From the IMG/VR virus record IMGVR_UViG_2534681675_000028: a stretch of DNA of 34,318 nt; one strand, given 5' to 3'. The notes under the pieces are model-generated. The model worked only from the letters and a program-made list of their open reading frames with translations. It ran no database searches and was not told where the DNA came from. The position numbers were made by a program, and so were the translations under genes. Shown one piece after another: positions 2,157 through 22,497 of the stretch (the first letter of the stretch is position 1; the number at the start of each line of letters is the position of its first letter). Source of the stretch: a virus. Taxonomy: Duplodnaviria > Heunggongvirae > Uroviricota > Caudoviricetes.

Positions 2157-3176
2157 CTACTTACTGACCACAAGCGGCAAATCCAGTGTTGGCGTGATTT
2201 TGGTTTTACGATCGTAAATCAACACCTGATTTTCTGTTTTGTGTCCACTGAAAATTTGTTTGTCGCGACTGCTGCCTTCGTAATCTGAAATTCCTTTGGC
2301 TTTTATGTCATGGAAGTTGCACCCAAACGGAACACCGGCTTTTTGCTCGGCTGCACGTTTAGCCTGATTCCACCAGTTGTTCAGCGTTTTAGCTATGACC
2401 TTCCCGCCTTTGGTTGTGTTGATCACATACTCGCATGTGCCGGAAGATACATTTCGGGCTAACTGGATCGCCGTACGTAATCGTGGAGACCATTCCTTGA
2501 TTTGTTTGGTGCCGGTCTTGTTTTGCTCAATGTAAATCCCTTTGTCCATAATATCCTGCCATTTCAGCTCGAGCACATCACCGAGCCTTGCCGCACAGAG
2601 ATAGGATATCTCCATTGCAATACGTAACTGTGGAATTGCTTCCGCATATATCGCAGCATACTGTTCATCGGTGATGTAAACAGTACGGGCTTTAAGCGTG
2701 AATTTTCTGACTCCTTTGCATGGATTATTTTTCACATACCCACGCTCATATCCCCATCCGTATACGCGACTCAGACTTGCCAGTTCATGGTTTGCCTGGG
2801 TCTTGCTCTCAAGCCCCCGCTTATCCATGAAAATTCTTACCTGCTCAATTTTTACATTATCAGCAAGCATTTTCCCGAATACCGCCAGTAATGCCCTTTG
2901 ATGTTGCCGATAATCTTTTTGGGTTCGGGGGGCCAGTTCTGTAAATGCAGGGGAGTCCATAAACATGTGCCATAATTTAGCTACGGTCATTATGTCGTGG
3001 AGTTTTGCCTTTTCCAGTTCATAATTTTGCCAGACTTTAGCCACGCTGGTTTCCCGCACTCTTCCTAGCTTTATCGTCCTTGTGCTTCCTTTGGGCTTCC
3101 ATACGTAACTGTAACCATTCGATCTAACGCGCGGTGGCAGTACATTATCTTTTTTGTCTTTTCTTGGTCTTCCCAT
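2157..3176 (-). CDS. int: Phage integrase, tyrosine recombinase (lambda Int family)
   Basis: 339-aa ORF; N-terminus MGRPRKDKKDNVLPP… and overall layout resemble lambda Int; adjacent to the tRNA-derived att core. Confidence 0.9.
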   Translation of the reverse strand: MGRPRKDKKDNVLPPRVRSNGYSYVWKPKGSTRTIKLGRVRETSVAKVWQNYELEKAKLHDIMTVAKLWHMFMDSPAFTELAPRTQKDYRQHQRALLAVFGKMLADNVKIEQVRIFMDKRGLESKTQANHELASLSRVYGWGYERGYVKNNPCKGVRKFTLKARTVYITDEQYAAIYAEAIPQLRIAMEISYLCAARLGDVLELKWQDIMDKGIYIEQNKTGTKQIKEWSPRLRTAIQLARNVSSGTCEYVINTTKGGKVIAKTLNNWWNQAKRAAEQKAGVPFGCNFHDIKAKGISDYEGSSRDKQIFSGHKTENQVLIYDRKTKITPTLDLPLVVSK

Positions 3177-6416: not shown

Positions 6417-6993
6417 TATCGCGTCCTCAACAATGAATTTTGTGATGCGGTGCCTGGTGCCTCCAGGTGACGTTAACCAGTTAACAATTAACGCCGGATA
6501 CAGAGAATCCACCCATAACACTGTTTTTGGTTTTAACTGTTCCGCGTGCGCTGAGCCGCATTCACCGCATCACAAAATTCACTTTTAAAAAAGGGCGGCA
6601 GAGCAGTCACGGAGTAAAACTGATACCGCCAAATGTCACCAGAATATTGATAACAGAGGGCGTTGTAGCGGGGTTGTCACTTAAGCGTATGGTCAACCTG
6701 ACAACCCGGTGTCCTCAACGGGGAAAGGCGTCCCTCCCACCCCCGCCATACTTACCGCCGCGCCATTTCGCGGGTCGCCACAACCGGAAGCGCACGGTCG
6801 AATTAAATTTAACGACACCGTGCAGTGAGACGAACTTCGCCGTGCGCTTTCGTGTTGTGTGCCTGCTTTTAACCACGTCAGGCGAGGTGGTTTCCGTCAT
6901 TCCCCAACGACAGGAAATCTGTATAATCTGGGTATCCCCAACGATCCAAGGAAATCATATGACAGAGCAAAGAGCACAAGCAGGTGATGGTGT

Positions 6994-14912: not shown

Positions 14913-15123
14913 AATGGCTTTTGTGTGCATGTTAAATAAAGAATACATGGCATCATTTAATGATGTCATGTGTAACGAGCGAAAAGCCTTTTGAACGGTT
15001 TTCATAAGTTATATTGAAAGATAAAATTGCTGCGGGTGCTTGAGGCTATCTGCCTCAGGCATGAACACCAACGGCAGATAGATAAAAGCCCCACCCGACT
15101 ATAAATCGAAGTGAGGCCCCTAT

Positions 15124-15336
15124 ATGCTCGTCACATACAGATTGCCTCTTACGGACCGAAAGGTCAAGGAGAAGCAGGCTATGAAGCAGCAAAAGGCGAT
15201 GCTAATCGCCCTGATCGTCATCTGTTTAACCGTCATAGTGACGGCACTGGTAACGAGGAAAGACCTCTGCGAGGTACGAATCCGAACCGGCCAGACGGAG
15301 GTCGCTGTCTTCACAGCTTACGAACCTGAGGAGTAA
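15124..15336 (+). CDS. mok: mok-like reading frame (N-terminally extended, in frame with hok)
   Basis: ORF in the same frame as hok sharing its stop codon, the arrangement I recall for chromosomal mok/hok pairs. Confidence 0.5.
   Translation: MLVTYRLPLTDRKVKEKQAMKQQKAMLIALIVICLTVIVTALVTRKDLCEVRIRTGQTEVAVFTAYEPEE
15181..15336 (+). CDS. hok: Hok/Gef-family type I toxin (51 aa)
   Basis: MKQQKAMLIALIVICLTVIVTALVTRKDLCEVRIRTGQTEVAVFTAYEPEE closely resembles Hok (…[25 protein letters not shown]…); AGGAG Shine-Dalgarno. Confidence 0.8.
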   Translation: MKQQKAMLIALIVICLTVIVTALVTRKDLCEVRIRTGQTEVAVFTAYEPEE

Positions 15337-16844: not shown

Positions 16845-17216
16845 ATGCGTATAGAGTTTGTTTTGCCTTACCCGCCGACGGTGAACACCTACTGGCGACG
16901 TCATGGCAGCACATATTTTGTATCAAAAGCCGGTGAGCGTTATCGCCGTGATGTGGCGTTCATTGTTCGCCAGCAGCGGTTGAAATTAAACCTCTCCGGA
17001 AGGCTGGCGATAAAGATTATTGCAGAGCCACCGGATAAGCGCCGTCGTGACCTGGACAATATCCTGAAAGCACTGCTGGATGCGCTGACACATGCGGGGC
17101 TGCTTATAGACGACGACCAGTTTGATGAAATCAATATTGTGCATGGTCTGCCTGTTTGCGGTGGGCGACTGGGTGTGAATATATTCGTAATAAGAGGATG
17201 TAATGATGTTGCGTGA
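16845..17216 (+). CDS. rusA: Holliday junction resolvase RusA
   Basis: 123-aa ORF; YWRRHG…[22 protein letters not shown] matches RusA motifs as I recall them. Confidence 0.85.
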
Positions 17217-17577
17217 TATTCAGCTGGTTATGGAGCGGTGGGGAGCATGGGCAGCAAGTAATCATGAAGATGTAACATGGTCCTCGATAGCTGCTGGTTT
17301 TAAAGGATTAATCCCGACTAAAGTGAAATCACGTCCTCAGTGTTCTGATGATGACGCCATGATAATTTGTGGCTGTATGGCACGATTAAACAAGAATAAT
17401 CAGTATTTGCACGATTTGTTGGTGGATTATTACGTAGGTGGAATGACATTTATGGCTCTTGCACGTAAGCATAGATGTTCTGATGGGCTTATTGGTAAAA
17501 GACTTTATAAAGCTGAAGGTATTATTGAAGGAATGCTTATGGCTCTGAATGTCCGGTTAGATATGGATATGCGGTAG
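17203..17577 (+). CDS. Q: Late-gene antiterminator Q (phage 21/82-type, QuuD-like)
   Basis: 124-aa ORF; [34 protein letters not shown]…[16 protein letters not shown] matches my recollection of QuuD. Confidence 0.85.
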
Positions 17578-17670
17578 GGATATATAGTGACGAGGGTTAT
17601 GTTTTCCGTGTTTATAATTAATATGTTTATTTTTTGATGGTCATGAATTTTATGGAAGGTAAACAAAATG

Positions 17671-17699
17671 TTGCCAGGTGAATTGAAAATATTGATAAT
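17671..17699 (+). promoter_or_regulatory. Sigma70-type promoter (TTGCCA, 17-bp spacer, GATAAT) downstream of Q: candidate late promoter pR' or cargo promoter
   Basis: Direct reading: -35 at 17671-17676, -10 at 17694-17699; about 30 bp upstream of the next start codon. Confidence 0.45.
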
Positions 17700-17730
17700 C
17701 AATCATCATCATTAAATAAAAGGAGTGTTT

Positions 17731-18549
17731 ATGTGGATTGTGTTAGCACTGTCACTGTCAACTCTCAGTTGGCATAAGGTAGTGGCTTTTTCATTGTTGA
17801 CGGTGTCTGTTGTCCTGGCTGTGCTTAATGATATTATTGATTGGCCGGTGTTGTTTTTTGTTGCTACAATCGTTTTTTTTATTATTTTGAAGTTCAACTG
17901 GAAATATAACGCCTGGGCTAAATCCATATATGAAGCTGGCATAGTTTTATCAGCCATAGCATTATCTTTCCATTTATGGCCAGGGTTTCACAATCCTGTA
18001 GTGCTAAAGTCTGTCACTGTCGGACCTCAAAGCACTCCCTATACAATGTATTTTAATTTTGATAAAGCGCTGGTGCCATTTTTGTTAGTCCTGTGTACAG
18101 CTTCTTTGTTTAAAAAAGAAGTGAAATCAGAAGTGTCTTTGTGGAAATGGGGGGCTCTGTTGCTCTCTGTTCCTCTTATACTGTTTTTGGCTGTTTTTTT
18201 TGGTGGGTTAAAGCCAGAGATTCATTTTCCAGAGTGGTTGCCAGAGTTTATATTGGCTAATTTGTTTTTTGTGTCTCTGGCAGAGGAGTCATTATTTAGA
18301 GGGTATATTCAATCACGGCTATCAGAAGTGACGTCTCCATTGGTTGCGTTAATTGTGGCGTCTTTGTTGTTTGGTTTTTATCACTATTCAGGTGGTGCTT
18401 TACTTGTATTATTTGCCACGTTATCTGGTGTTGTGTATGGATTGTCATGGATGTGGAGTGGGTGCTTGTGGGTGGCAACCCTTTTCCATTTTGGTCTGAA
18501 TCTGTGTCACTTGTTATTCTTTACCTATCCATTCTTAAAACATAATTGA
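17731..18549 (+). CDS. CPBP-family (CAAX protease / Abi, PF02517-type) intramembrane metalloprotease
   Basis: 272-aa polytopic ORF with AGGAG Shine-Dalgarno; conserved motifs EExxxR (AEESLFRGY), FxxxH (FGFYHY) and HxxxN (HFGLNLCH). Confidence 0.75.
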   Translation: MWIVLALSLSTLSWHKVVAFSLLTVSVVLAVLNDIIDWPVLFFVATIVFFIILKFNWKYNAWAKSIYEAGIVLSAIALSFHLWPGFHNPVVLKSVTVGPQSTPYTMYFNFDKALVPFLLVLCTASLFKKEVKSEVSLWKWGALLLSVPLILFLAVFFGGLKPEIHFPEWLPEFILANLFFVSLAEESLFRGYIQSRLSEVTSPLVALIVASLLFGFYHYSGGALLVLFATLSGVVYGLSWMWSGCLWVATLFHFGLNLCHLLFFTYPFLKHN

Positions 18550-18688
18550 TTTTTTTCTATGGCTTTAAATTTATAACACTGAAAAATAGCAGTATGTGAC
18601 ATTTGCATGAAAAATATGCACGGCAAAGCATTTACGTACGTAAAAAATCATGTATGCTTTTAAGAGTGGTTATTTCACCGCATAGCCT

Positions 18689-18714
18689 GAACCCGCCTCT
18701 GAGCGGGTTTTTTG
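18689..18714 (+). terminator. Rho-independent terminator after the CPBP gene
   Basis: ACCCGC-CTCTGA-GCGGGT followed by TTTTTTG. Confidence 0.65.
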
Positions 18715-18836
18715 TGCCCGCAAAGTAGCGCAGTGCGTTAAATGTGCTGGTAGTTATTAATACTGGTCTTTCTGCTTGCTGGCTTTTTAGACAAGAGTTA
18801 TTGGTATGTCACGTTAACCAGAAAAGGGAAAAAGAC

Positions 18837-19034
18837 ATGCTAAAACAGCAGGATATGACCGAAACCGCCAGAGTGGTGTTTAATGAATTAAGCGTCACCG
18901 AACCGGCGACCGTCGGGGAGATTGCGCAGAATACTTACCTTTCACGCGAGCGCTGCCAGTTAATACTGACTCAGCTTGTTATGGCGGGTCTGGCAGATTA
19001 TCAGTTCGGTTGTTACAGACGCCTTCCGCAGTGA
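18837..19034 (+). CDS. Small hypothetical protein, possibly winged-helix DNA-binding
   Basis: ORF 18744-19034 trimmed to the internal ATG (MLKQQDMTET…) preceded by AAGGGAA. Confidence 0.4.
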   Translation: MLKQQDMTETARVVFNELSVTEPATVGEIAQNTYLSRERCQLILTQLVMAGLADYQFGCYRRLPQ

Positions 19035-19184
19035 AGGCTTTTTAATTTGTGGTAATGGGCGGCTGGTGGGTGTTAGCGGCACCTGCCAGCCATCTGCTCA
19101 TGCGTTGGGGTCACAAGCAAACCTCAGGCCCATCTGCTTTGCGCAAAAGCGGTATGAGCCTATCAGAGAAGTGCTTATTGATCT

Positions 19185-19734
19185 ATGGCTAATACTGTAA
19201 AAATATCCAGCTGCGAGTTAATCAACGCTGATTTCCTGGAATTTATCCAGACCTTACCGGAAAACTCTGTCGATCTGATAGTCACAGACCCGCCATACTT
19301 TAAAGTGAAGCCCGAGGGCTGGGATAACCAGTGGAAGGGCGACGATGATTACCTGAAATGGCTGGATCAGTGTCTGGCGCAGTTCTGGTGGGTATTAAAA
19401 CCCGCCGGAAGTCTTTACCTGTTCTGTGGTCATCGCCTGGCATCTGATATCGAAATCATGATGCGTGAGCGCTTTAATGTGCTGAACCACATTATCTGGG
19501 CGAAGCCGTCCGGGCGCTGGAACGGGTGCAACAAGGAAAGCCTGCGGGCGTATTTCCCGGCAACAGAGCGCATTCTGTTTGCGTCCGGGAGATTTGGTTG
19601 CCGACTTTTTCATGGGGTCAGGCTCCATAATAAAAGCAGCGCTGGCACTTGGGGGCATGGCGTTAAGCGTTGAACTTGAGTCTGAACGTTTTGAGCATAC
19701 TGCGGGTGAAATAGTTACGTTGGCAGATAATTAA
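19185..19734 (+). pseudogene. DNA N6-adenine (beta-class) methyltransferase with an apparent frameshift near 19585
   Basis: N-terminal frame has DPPY (motif IV); the +1 frame downstream reads RPGDLVADFFMGSGSIIKAALALGG (motif I, FxGxG); the two frames do not join without an indel. Confidence 0.6.
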
Positions 19735-19848: not shown

Positions 19849-19924
<76 letters not shown>

Positions 19925-19927
19925 TAT

Positions 19928-20002
<75 letters not shown>

Positions 20003-20281: not shown

Positions 20282-20307
20282 ACCGCCACACTTGGCGGTT
20301 TTTTTTT
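20282..20307 (+). terminator. Strong Rho-independent terminator downstream of the tRNA pair
   Basis: ACCGCC-ACACTT-GGCGGT followed by a T9 run. Confidence 0.7.
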
Positions 20308-20405
20308 ATTCTGTTTTTTCATGGCTCGCTACGGCGGCCTTTTTCATGTATACCCTGGCGGTTATTATGATGGCTTGTTTATTTGTTCATAAGAGGATTG
20401 ATACA

Positions 20406-20888
20406 GTGGTCACTTATGCTGATATCAGGGCAAAACGGGCCGAAATACTGAAAGCTAAGCAGGAATACATTCAGCGGTTGCGGGATACAGCCACAAGGCT
20501 GGTCAATGCCTATGAGTCTTCACTGGCGTTGCCGGAACTGCAATGGCGAGACATTGAGGGTGAGTTACATCCTTACGTCTATATTTGCTTCAATGGCTTC
20601 AGTGTCCGACCGGAGGATTTGCAGGTAGACCTTAGGGACGGAGTTGCGTTTAAATTATACACAGTTGTTGATGACAATCCCCGCCAGTCTGCAAGTATGG
20701 AAGTTGGTGTAAAGATTGTGCTGCTTGATGGCGATAACCTGACGATTTCAGTTAATGGTTATGGGGACAGAACATTTTCGCACGTAGATACCGATGCAAA
20801 AATTAACGAGGTATGCGAGTTCATCAAAGACAGTATTTTAATGTCGATGAATGATGTGAATTTGGCAAAGCATCTCTGCCGAAGATAG
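20406..20888 (+). CDS. Hypothetical cargo protein in the slot between the tRNAs and the lysis cassette; start uncertain
   Basis: ORF 20292-20888 in the track begins inside the terminator; GTG 20406 has an AAGAGGA Shine-Dalgarno; an alternative ATG at 20346 would add an N-terminal hydrophobic segment but has no Shine-Dalgarno. Confidence 0.4.
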   Translation: MVTYADIRAKRAEILKAKQEYIQRLRDTATRLVNAYESSLALPELQWRDIEGELHPYVYICFNGFSVRPEDLQVDLRDGVAFKLYTVVDDNPRQSASMEVGVKIVLLDGDNLTISVNGYGDRTFSHVDTDAKINEVCEFIKDSILMSMNDVNLAKHLCRR

Positions 20889-21098
20889 AAGGCAGGAGTC
20901 GTAAAAAGGAATCGTTCGAAAATCTCAGAATCACCAGGCTGCGCATTTGCGTGGCCTTTTTTGTATCCGCGCCACGCCCGGCGCATATCAAAAACCACAG
21001 AGCCTTTCAGGGGTGAGCTTACGGGATGGTCAGTGTGACTTTCTCTGTGGGCTGGTCACCCCCGGGCGCAGGCTCACCCACTAAAAGGAAAAGTCACG

Positions 21099-21524
21099 AT
21101 GTTTGGTATTTTCAAAAAGAAAACACGCAAGGCCATTACCGAAGTGAAGAAGATGGAGAACCGCGACGCAGTGGAGGCGACCGTCTGGGGTGCGTATTCC
21201 ATTGCATACGCTGACGACACCTGTGACTCGAAAGAAATCGCGGTACTGGAGAAAACCATTGCAGCACTTCCTGCCTTTGCGCCGTTCTCCGGTGAGATTG
21301 CACAAATGAGTGCAAATATCCGCGCCCGTTATGAAGCGTCGCCGCGCTCTGCCAATGCTGAAGCCCTTCGCCAGCTGGCTGATGTCGCCGGTACTGATGA
21401 CGCAGTGAATGTGCTGTGCCTGTGTCTGGATATTGCAGACCAGGATGGCATTGGGCCGGAGGAAGAAGTACAGCTCAAGAAAATTGCTCAGGCGCTTCAG
21501 TTACCGCTGGAGCAGTACCTGTGA
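21099..21524 (+). CDS. TerB-like (tellurite-resistance TerB / DjlA N-terminal domain family) protein
   Basis: 141-aa ORF; family assignment by recollection of prophage TerB-family proteins. Confidence 0.5.
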   Translation: MFGIFKKKTRKAITEVKKMENRDAVEATVWGAYSIAYADDTCDSKEIAVLEKTIAALPAFAPFSGEIAQMSANIRARYEASPRSANAEALRQLADVAGTDDAVNVLCLCLDIADQDGIGPEEEVQLKKIAQALQLPLEQYL

Positions 21525-21673
21525 AAAGTGCGCGCCTTGTACTGGCTGCCATCCTGCTGTTTCTGGTAGTGGTGGTGGATTTTACCGGACGGCTGATGTC
21601 GGTACTGGCAGATGGTGTGCTGGTGGTGATGGTGTTGGTCGTGCTCCGGCCTTTACTGCGCAAATCTGAATAA
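21521..21673 (+). CDS. Small hydrophobic protein (50 aa, two hydrophobic stretches), apparently translationally coupled to the TerB-like gene
   Basis: GTG start overlaps the TerB-like stop (GTGA); LVLAAILLFLVVVV and GVLVVMVLVVL segments; under 60 aa from its start. Confidence 0.35.
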   Translation: MKSARLVLAAILLFLVVVVDFTGRLMSVLADGVLVVMVLVVLRPLLRKSE

Positions 21674-21723
21674 CACCACGCAAAAGGCATCTGCGGGTGC
21701 CTTTGATTGGGTGTTGTTTTTAC

Positions 21724-21748
21724 GGGCCGCTGGTGGCCTTTTTTGTTT
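21724..21748 (+). terminator. Putative intrinsic terminator upstream of the holin gene
   Basis: GGCC-GCTGGT-GGCC hairpin followed by TTTTTTGTTT; preceded by a second 7-bp hairpin at 21683-21704. Confidence 0.4.
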
Positions 21749-21784
21749 CCATTATACAACGCCCGCATCTGCGAGGTGGGGGTT

Positions 21785-22000
21785 ATGAAATCCATGGACA
21801 AAATTTCAACGGGCATTGCCTATGGCACCTCCGCAGGCAGTGCTGGCTACTGGTTTTTACAGTGGCTTGATCAGGTCAGTCCGTCACAGTGGGCTGCGAT
21901 TGGTGTATTAGGGAGTCTGGTTCTGGGCTTCCTGACTTATCTGACAAATCTGTACTTCAAAATAAGAGAAGACAGAAGAAAGGCTGCGAGAGGTGAATAA
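21785..22000 (+). CDS. S: Class II holin of phage 21 type (S21-like pinholin) with dual-start motif MKSMDK
   Basis: [71 protein letters not shown] matches my recollection of S21; GAGGTG Shine-Dalgarno. Confidence 0.85.
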
Positions 22001-22497
22001 TGCCTCCATCATTACGAAAAGCCGTTGCTGCTGCTATTGGTGGCGGGGCTATTGCTATAGCATCTGTGTTAATCACTGGTCCAGGTGGTAACGATGGTCT
22101 GGAAGGTGTCAGTTACATACCATACAAAGATATTGTTGGTGTATGGACTGTATGCCACGGACACACCGGAAAAGACATCATGCTCGGTAAAACGTATACC
22201 GAAGCAGAATGCAAAGCCCTCCTGAATAAAGACCTTTCCACGGTCGCCAGACAAATTACCCCGTACATCAAAGTCGATATACCAGAAACAACGCGCGGCG
22301 CTCTTTACTCATTCGTCTATAACGTGGGTGCTGGAAATTTCAGAACATCGACTCTTCTTCGCAAAATAAACCAGGGTGATATCAAAGGCGCATGTGATCA
22401 GCTACGGCGCTGGACATACGCTGGCGGTAAGCAATGGAAAGGGCTGATGACCCGTCGTGATATTGAGCGTGAAGTCTGTTTGTGGGGGCAGCAATGA
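22000..22497 (+). CDS. R: SAR endolysin (lysozyme, R21-like) with N-terminal signal-anchor-release segment
   Basis: 165-aa ORF whose start overlaps the holin stop; hydrophobic Gly/Ala-rich N-terminus ([20 protein letters not shown]); lysozyme-like body. Confidence 0.8.

Follow-up and report, generated by a model that had tools for sequence, protein, structure and literature searches.

The closest described relative of the locus analyzed here is the tciA-tciB(-tciC) gene group of bacteriophage P1, which was named in 2004 in the annotation of GenBank record AF234173. The three P1 genes were all nonessential in a genome-wide CRISPR interference screen (PMC10695390), and the tci genes make up one of the regions that vary among P1-like phage-plasmids (PMC9603915). 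We examined a homologous tciA-tciB pair in a 34,318-nucleotide (nt) stretch of DNA (IMG/VR record IMGVR_UViG_2534681675_000028; "the window" hereafter means this whole stretch), which is a lambdoid prophage of Escherichia coli that carries the pair in its Q-to-S interval. The gene pair is already known, being named and catalogued in RefSeq, in PHROGs and as P1 tciA/tciB; the part that appears to be undescribed is a structured RNA leader ahead of tciA. Our joint proposal is tentative, and we give it slightly less than even weight: the leader would belong to an undescribed family of cis-regulatory RNAs that sequester the Shine-Dalgarno (SD) sequence and gate mobile cassettes in late operons, while leader, tciA and tciB together would form a self-contained mobile unit encoding a minimal membrane-tethered TerB device used in lytic growth. 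Within this proposal the leader RNA might sense a signal, or its behaviour might depend on the promoter from which the transcript originated. The features concerned are listed below.

20991 to 21098, plus strand: structured 5' leader of tciA, about 110 nt, a candidate cis-regulatory RNA (covariation, RNAalifold, covariance model)
20995-21002 with 21043-21050: helix a of the leader
21003-21007 with 21084-21088: anti-SD CCUUU paired with SD AAAGG
21011-21018 with 21072-21079: helix b
21023-21033 with 21052-21062: helix c
21099 to 21524, plus strand: tciA, ATG start, 141 amino acids (aa) (Pfam, PHROG, PDB profile, AlphaFold2 (AF2))
21509 to 21512, plus strand: GGAG, a Shine-Dalgarno-like motif for tciB within the 3' end of tciA, 8 nt ahead of the GTG (kept in 83 of 84 loci)
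21521 to 21673, plus strand: tciB, GTG start, 50 aa (Pfam DUF3927, PHROG 1470, RefSeq WP_000833650.1)

The window and P1 share the gene order, the overlap between the stop of tciA and the start of tciB, and tRNA genes nearby; TciA is 85% identical between them across all 141 residues, and TciB belongs to the same DUF3927 family with 45% identity. The two loci differ in several respects. P1 has tciC, whereas in the window there is no open reading frame (ORF) in 21673-21785, a 112-nt gap that contains hairpins only. The P1 genes are located downstream of C1-repressed Pban promoters, whereas the pair in the window lies between Q and S. P1 is also without the structured leader (no covariance-model match in the P1 locus, L003), and when P1 DNA is compared with that of the window the shared region is the tciA coding region only.

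Three bacterial systems with TerB-like proteins offer further comparisons. TerB of ter operons is described, in a preprint and through its references (bioRxiv 10.1101/2024.08.29.610257), as a cytoplasmic protein that is reported to be membrane-attached and co-localised with TerC, and PMC7371120 cites tellurite resistance, phage inhibition and colicin resistance as phenotypes conferred by ter operons. KP-TerB (terZABCDEF; structure 2JXU) is homologous to TciA over nearly the whole length and has the same helical fold class and acidic motifs. However, the partner in the ter operon is the multi-pass protein TerC, whereas here it is a 50-aa peptide and no other ter genes are present in the annotated neighbourhood; ter operons give tellurite resistance, whereas for the phage TciA such resistance is putative. 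DjlA uses a short hydrophobic element to hold a TerB-like domain on the cytoplasmic side of the inner membrane (bioRxiv 10.1101/2024.08.29.610257), an arrangement that we liken to the one proposed for TciA-TciB. The anchor of DjlA is fused (an N-terminal transmembrane (TM) helix) and its output is a J domain, while TciB would be an anchor encoded by its own gene, and no output domain is present. Shango, a system with a proven role in anti-phage defence, includes the TerB-like SngA (PMC10250203), and TciA is likewise TerB-like, but Shango consists of three genes with a helicase and an ATPase; such partners are absent here, and there is no PADLOC match.

In the predicted fold of the leader, the SD of tciA is paired with the anti-SD, and helix a joins the 8 nt that immediately precede the anti-SD to the apical loop of helix c. 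Helix a is formed by CCACAGAG/CTCTGTGG in lambdoids and by CCGTAGAG/CTCTACGG in jumbo phages; the other variants are CCGCAGA/TCTGCGG, CGCAGAG/CTCTGCG, CCAAGAG/CTCTTGG and CCACAA/TTGTGG. Helix a crosses helices b and c, which implies either a pseudoknot or a pair of alternative states. About 165 nt ahead of tciA are conserved at the DNA level between lambdoids that carry two very different tciA alleles, and about 105 nt of this upstream block are recognisable ahead of tciA in jumbo Machinavirus phages. A 17-nt core of the leader is found in at least 120 IMG/VR contigs, with a TerB gene next in 102 of the 108 that could be evaluated; the remaining matches to the core are deletions or chance.

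The pairing was evaluated in an alignment of 32 sequences, many of them closely related and the same ones from which the structure was derived, where 93.2% of the cells are paired, compared with at most 52% when the partners are slid, and where both sides have changed at seven leader pairs. The observed covariation score of 0.125 exceeds both that of shuffles (0.090; none of 500 reach the observed value) and that of the slid controls (at most 0.072). Helix b is nearly invariant in this set, and its covariation comes from two divergent members only. RNAalifold independently predicts the CCUUU:AAAGG helix together with a covarying adjacent pair (AU in 24 sequences, GC in 7). G-U pairs are frequent, which indicates that the sense strand folds. 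The minimum free energy of the leader has a z-score of -2.7, and the covariance model scores the leader of the window at 132 bits. Rfam 15 gave no match to the leader at gathering scores and none in 20985-21100 at E<=10, and a literature search for leader sequences found nothing.

Leaders that sequester the ribosome-binding site of inserted genes are known from phage T4, where they precede I-TevI and other homing-endonuclease genes. The tciA leader can be likened to them, as in T4-type leaders the SD is paired in a hairpin ahead of an inserted accessory gene in a strongly transcribed operon. It differs from them in being a multi-helix family of about 110 nt, with pairing between a loop and the 5' side, which is common to many unrelated genes and has no evident internal promoter. 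The yybP-ykoY Mn2+ riboswitch, which sits upstream of TerC-family genes, is also a structured leader ahead of a Ter-related gene; the tciA leader, however, has no sequence or structure match to it (Rfam, E<=10), and the sister leader described below precedes genes that are unrelated to metals.

The leader ahead of tciA (type-a) has a divergent sister version (type-b), which was detected with the covariance model. At least 120 additional viral contigs contain it. Type-b is located directly ahead of at least 12 unrelated ORFs, several of which carry a weak tail-tip-like domain, and more divergent members of the family are located ahead of an HNH-AP2 endonuclease gene and ahead of a KilA-N/P63C gene. 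Type-b is present in phi80, ahead of ORF x171.28 near cosQ; in HK639, ahead of gene 13, a moron between tail genes with annotated terminators on either side; and in mEp043, mEp213, mEp237, mEp390 and others. Type-b usually follows a terminator and is unannotated in all records seen. A GCGC...GCGC hairpin like the one at 20969-20984 of the window precedes the type-b leaders of phi80 and HK639, as read from the sequence. In three loci (L099, L100 and L171) both versions occur, type-a with tciAB before the lysis cassette and type-b with a variable gene after it. Neither leader type has an internal promoter that is evident by eye. Representative members of the family have the following coordinates.

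L100: 5062-5159
L099: 6028-6123
L355 (phi80): 3001-3089
L356 (HK639): 2501-2596
L298: 10637-10751
L313: 220-339

Helix a of type-b is only 5-6 bp long and is not significant in any single sequence; the support for this helix comes from type-a and from the divergent members. By analogy with the leaders of other inserted genes, it is plausible that the leader insulates or gates the translation of inserted cassettes in heavily transcribed late operons. If true, a leader common to many unrelated accessory genes would represent a general rule for the expression of inserted cassettes in late operons. The leader may outweigh the gene pair in importance, and phi80, HK639 and the mEp series are tractable phages.

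TciA, the product of the gene behind the type-a leader, is a full-length, cytoplasmic homologue of ter-operon TerB. An earlier note on this window, which was made from the sequence without database searches, had called the protein TerB-like, and a hidden Markov model search places it above the cut-off of the Pfam TerB family (PF05099, 27.3 bits against a cut-off of 24.4, E 4.8e-6), with a full-length match to PHROG 632 "tellurite resistance" (E 1.6e-63). A profile built from 12 divergent phage homologues matches the KP-TerB structure 2JXU at residues 14-138 (E 8e-18), and RefSeq lists the protein as "tellurite resistance TerB family protein" (WP_000466938.1). The AF2 model is a six-helix bundle (predicted local distance difference test (pLDDT) score 88.2, predicted TM-score 0.83) preceded by a basic N-terminal tail, residues 1-20, which is unstructured in the model. 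Its best Foldseek matches are the TerB-like structures 2H5N (probability 1.00, TM-score 0.53-0.59) and 2OU3, with weak E-values (0.03). Two acidic motifs of the form AxADG-x5-E, at residues 36-46 and 111-122, are kept across the 12 divergent homologues, in which D39, E46 and E122 are invariant and G117 nearly so; from their sequence these motifs are a putative metal site. In the window the first motif carries the change G40D (codon 21216-21218), as it does in 16 of 84 related loci. The ratio of nonsynonymous to synonymous polymorphism (pN/pS) of tciA is 0.07.

The second gene encodes a peptide of the DUF3927 family. It scores 49.2 bits with Pfam PF13064 (cut-off 25) and matches PHROG 1470 "TciB-like" with an E-value of 1.9e-23, and RefSeq names the product "DUF3927 family protein". 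Its GTG start (21521-21523) overlaps the TGA of tciA (21522-21524) in the tetranucleotide GTGA, and its stop is the TAA at 21671-21673. The overlap and the two hydrophobic stretches had been reported in the earlier note, together with translational coupling of the two genes. The stretches are present at residues 6-19 and 25-42, on either side of a conserved D-F-T-G-R, and D31-G32 are conserved as well; the overlap is kept in 83 of 84 loci, and the coupling is likewise confirmed. The window has R43-P44 (codon 21647-21649) where most family members have W43 before the invariant P44. AF2 models TciB alone as one continuous helix, residues 2-47 (46 residues), with a pLDDT of 90.

A 50-aa frame with a GTG start and a low-complexity hydrophobic content could in principle be a chance, untranslated open frame in GC-rich sequence that is rich in valine codons. 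We regard this as extremely unlikely. Apart from the Pfam match and the conservation of both GGAG and the start-stop overlap, tciB is under frame-specific purifying selection (pN/pS is 0.42 in its own frame and falls to 0.25 in codons 2-35, while the two alternative frames give 0.83-0.90), and unrelated phage families retain the DUF3927 peptide, with identities falling to about 30%, at an unchanging position. The family is small, since clustering at 50% identity gives 153 clusters in a set of 1.84 billion representatives, and its members are stand-alone throughout; the few long matches are frameshifts or chimeras. Five candidates for natural TerB-DUF3927 fusions (P0056, P0244, P0275, P0314 and P0377) were rejected as frameshifts or chimeric assemblies. 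One protein of 140 aa, P0355, has two tandem DUF3927-like units, the only multi-copy architecture observed in the family.

TerB followed by a membrane peptide is a conserved, translationally coupled two-gene module. A DUF3927 peptide begins at -7 to +4 nt from the TerB stop in lambdoids of types 1 and 2, in P1, in the N4-like phages SP-076 and SP-058, in jumbo Machinavirus phages of Erwinia and Salmonella, in Pseudomonas phage ZY21 and in Pantoea phage LIET2; of seven downstream membrane peptides that were tested, five exceed the Pfam cut-off. Lambdoid type 2 includes Evi and JLK-2012, whose TciA is only 42% identical. In ZY21 the annotation holds a 39-aa DUF3927 ORF, while a 62-aa GTG ORF (L088: 986-1174), which begins 3 nt past the TerB stop and is unannotated at its full length, matches DUF3927 with 33.5 bits. 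Among 83 related loci tciB comes after a TerB gene in 82. When one genome per species is counted, TerB lies directly upstream in 15 of 19 DUF3927 loci, the other four being truncated remnants. At least five very different phage groups carry the TerB-DUF3927 pair, as do 596 of 5426 complete E. coli genomes (about 11%), with 173 plasmid-borne places. Recognition of the known pair, whose existing names the earlier note had missed, averts a false claim to a new lysis or defence module.

The module is mosaic. The leader (20935-21112) and part of tciB (21543-21642) are conserved at the DNA level in comparison with L085 and L086, where TciA is only 42% identical. Between SP-076 and SP-058 (L084 and L090), TciB is near-identical and TciA very different. 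These sequence comparisons suggest that tciA alleles are swapped between conserved flanks. Proximity of tciAB to phage tRNA genes was observed in the window, P1 (L003), L086, L085, L087, L094 and L088, which include JLK-2012, Evi, jumbo phages and ZY21. A fixed association of the pair with tRNA genes was rejected, with a tRNA gene within 3 kb in only 4 of the 19 species-representative loci and in none of the N4-like phages; the tRNA neighbourhood is probably a matter of co-location in accessory regions.

The Q-to-S interval of lambdoid phages is a classic hot spot for the insertion of accessory genes, such as stx. In the window the local order is the Q antiterminator, a CPBP-type protease gene, an IS66 element, a shortened DNA methyltransferase gene and tRNA genes, followed by a 198-aa ORF, tciA, tciB and a phage-21-type lysis cassette. 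The chromosome of E. coli strain N96 matches the 881-bp stretch 20900-21780 with 100% identity. The features flanking the pair are listed below.

19849-20002: tRNA-Thr and tRNA-Gly genes
20292-20888: 198-aa ORF, PHROG 5091, hydrophobic N-terminus
20936 to 20957, plus strand: terminator-like hairpin and T-run that closes the 198-aa ORF (scan, 9 pairs of which 6 are GC, and fold)
20969 to 20984, plus strand: small GC hairpin, GCGCC-ACGCCC-GGCGC, immediately ahead of the leader (read from the sequence)
21668 to 21721, plus strand: composite hairpin followed by a T-run, inner stem 21683-21704 (fold, z = -2.7)
21724 to 21746, plus strand: second terminator-like hairpin and T-run, between the cassette and the holin gene (scan and fold)
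21785-22000: phage-21-type class II holin gene, starting 112 nt past tciB
22000-22497: signal-anchor-release (SAR)-type lysozyme gene, with Rz/Rz1 next

The cassette thus has terminator-like hairpins on both sides. The upstream one, at 20936-20957, is the start of the conserved block common to the type-2 lambdoids. On the downstream side, the composite hairpin, whose outer stem takes in the tciB stop codon, is the first terminator-like structure past tciB.

We slightly favour an account in which tciA-tciB is a moron cassette, TciB is the membrane partner of TciA, and the pair has a protective role in the lytic phase. TciB would anchor or partner TciA at the inner membrane and would stand in for TerC, the membrane protein that TerB has in ter operons. 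We propose TciB as this partner because, in the phages examined, DUF3927 follows TerB except in Vibrio phage MS02, which has TerC and TerD beside TerB and no DUF3927 peptide, and which is the only phage examined with TerC/TerD. The pair would be produced in lytic development, in lambdoids from the Q-antiterminated late transcript, with the leader gating the translation of tciA. It would then protect the infected cell at the membrane; by analogy with the Ter Phi and PacB phenotypes, the candidate roles are the exclusion of superinfecting phages, the preservation of membrane energisation, and tolerance of a membrane-depolarising attack by pore-forming colicins or abortive-infection systems. A protective role at the membrane is our best guess, and the membrane-stress or defence module suggested in the earlier note is plausible by analogy with Ter systems. 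The lytic phase is supported by the position of the P1 genes behind the C1-repressed promoters, by the presence of the module in N4-like and jumbo phages, and by the lack of a promoter-like site ahead of tciA in the window.

Several observations weigh against this account. The timing of tciAB expression in this prophage is inferred from position, and the consensus promoter scan, in which no sigma-70-like site was found from 20957 to 21099, is weak evidence. Two TerB-carrying phages are without DUF3927, namely PMBT3 and AF, the latter with a different one-TM ORF. The exchange of tciA alleles against a near-constant tciB speaks against a tightly co-evolving interface, and with regard to contact between TciA and TciB there is no genuine natural fusion among the long DUF3927 matches. 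The modelled single helix of TciB, which is not a hairpin, does not settle the topology of the peptide. PADLOC-DB 2.0 returned no families at E<=1 for TciA, TciB or the upstream ORF, the NCBIfam scan gave no match, and the searchable literature yielded no experiment on any TciA or TciB.

If the pair acted in the lysogen instead, it would be a lysogenic-conversion module that gives tellurite or colicin resistance or anti-phage defence, which we consider unlikely. Both genes are classed in PHROGs as "moron, auxiliary metabolic gene and host takeover", the layout with terminators on both sides is moron-like, and the ter-operon phenotypes cited in PMC7371120 (tellurite, phage inhibition, colicin) are of the appropriate kind. 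However, the tci names were assigned "by homology" only, and TerB without other ter genes has been argued to be unlikely to give tellurite resistance (PMC8421299), while no terC, terD or terZ is present in the annotated neighbourhood here. Defence of the Shango type is countered by the absence of its helicase and ATPase partners and of any PADLOC match. A lysogen-specific role is doubtful because phages without lysogeny genes in the stretches examined also carry the module, as do N4-like and jumbo phages, and because there is no promoter-like site between the upstream terminator and the tciA ATG. Quite improbable, in our judgement, is a device for ion or metal homeostasis, in which a TciB oligomer would be a small cation pore formed via D31 and D20 and gated by the metal-binding TerB domain, adjusting Mn2+, Ca2+, Mg2+ or the membrane potential for phage development. 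It would make sense of the conserved acidic residues inside the hydrophobic segments of TciB, of the conserved acidic pairs in TciA, and of the location of TerB next to TerC/Alx-family metal-homeostasis proteins in the Vibrio phage, but it is inference only: neither structure nor homology revealed a connection to any channel, and AF2 yields only a monomeric helix.

The location of the pair next to the lysis genes had led the earlier note to consider an accessory lysis regulator. On such a reading TciB would be antiholin- or holin-like and TciA would tune the triggering time of the S21 pinholin. The neighbour is as that note described, since the next gene downstream is the class II holin at 21785, which shares its strand and late transcription unit with the pair, and TciB is indeed a small hydrophobic peptide. 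Additionally, membrane depolarisation triggers holins, and Ter systems are associated with resistance to depolarisation. The comparative evidence nevertheless makes a regulator of this kind very unlikely. The P1 pair belongs to the C1-controlled ban operon downstream of the Pban promoters, N4-like phages carry the pair near dUTPase and replication genes, and the jumbo phages and Pseudomonas ZY21 carry it amid tRNA genes, all of these being settings without lysis neighbours. Even in lambdoids at least three unrelated lysis cassettes follow the pair: the window has S21/R21, pPE4 has another holin with an L-Ala-D-Glu endopeptidase, and Evi has a lambda-S type. Two terminator-like hairpins separate tciB from S, a natural and precise deletion of tciAB (locus L230) leaves the downstream region intact, and neither TciA nor TciB has a holin-family match in Pfam or PHROGs. 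Adjacency to lysis genes is thus limited to lambdoids, where the cassette types differ, and the lysis-regulator reading is therefore unsupported. Judged from these sequence comparisons, the pair lies beside the lysis genes by position, not by function, and is probably not a component of the lysis cassette. Altogether the comparative results focus attention on lytic growth, on the membrane and on independence from the lysis genes.

Several further observations concern the surroundings of the pair. The 198-aa ORF at 20292-20888 is flanked by terminator-like hairpins at 20282-20299 and 20936-20957 and is missing from JLK-2012; it resembles an independent moron that was inserted downstream of the tRNA genes and ahead of the tciA leader. 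The protease gene (CPBP-type, "lysostaphin resistance A-like"), the IS66 element, which lies on the opposite strand, and the shortened methyltransferase gene occupy approximately 17200-19700 within the Q-to-S region, and the IS66 element may alter late read-through from pR'. The DNA of "Actinobacillus phage vB_Apl-pPE4" (PP818812.1) is 94% identical to this E. coli prophage region, and a contig from a "Bacillota" metagenome-assembled genome (JAEWMQ010000075.1) carries a tciA that is 93% identical; the host and bin assignments of these two records look doubtful. Elsewhere in the prophage, Rfam matches were obtained for the sok antitoxin RNA at 15034-15183 on the plus strand (102.9 bits) and for the DicF small RNA at 6593-6644 on the minus strand (77 bits).

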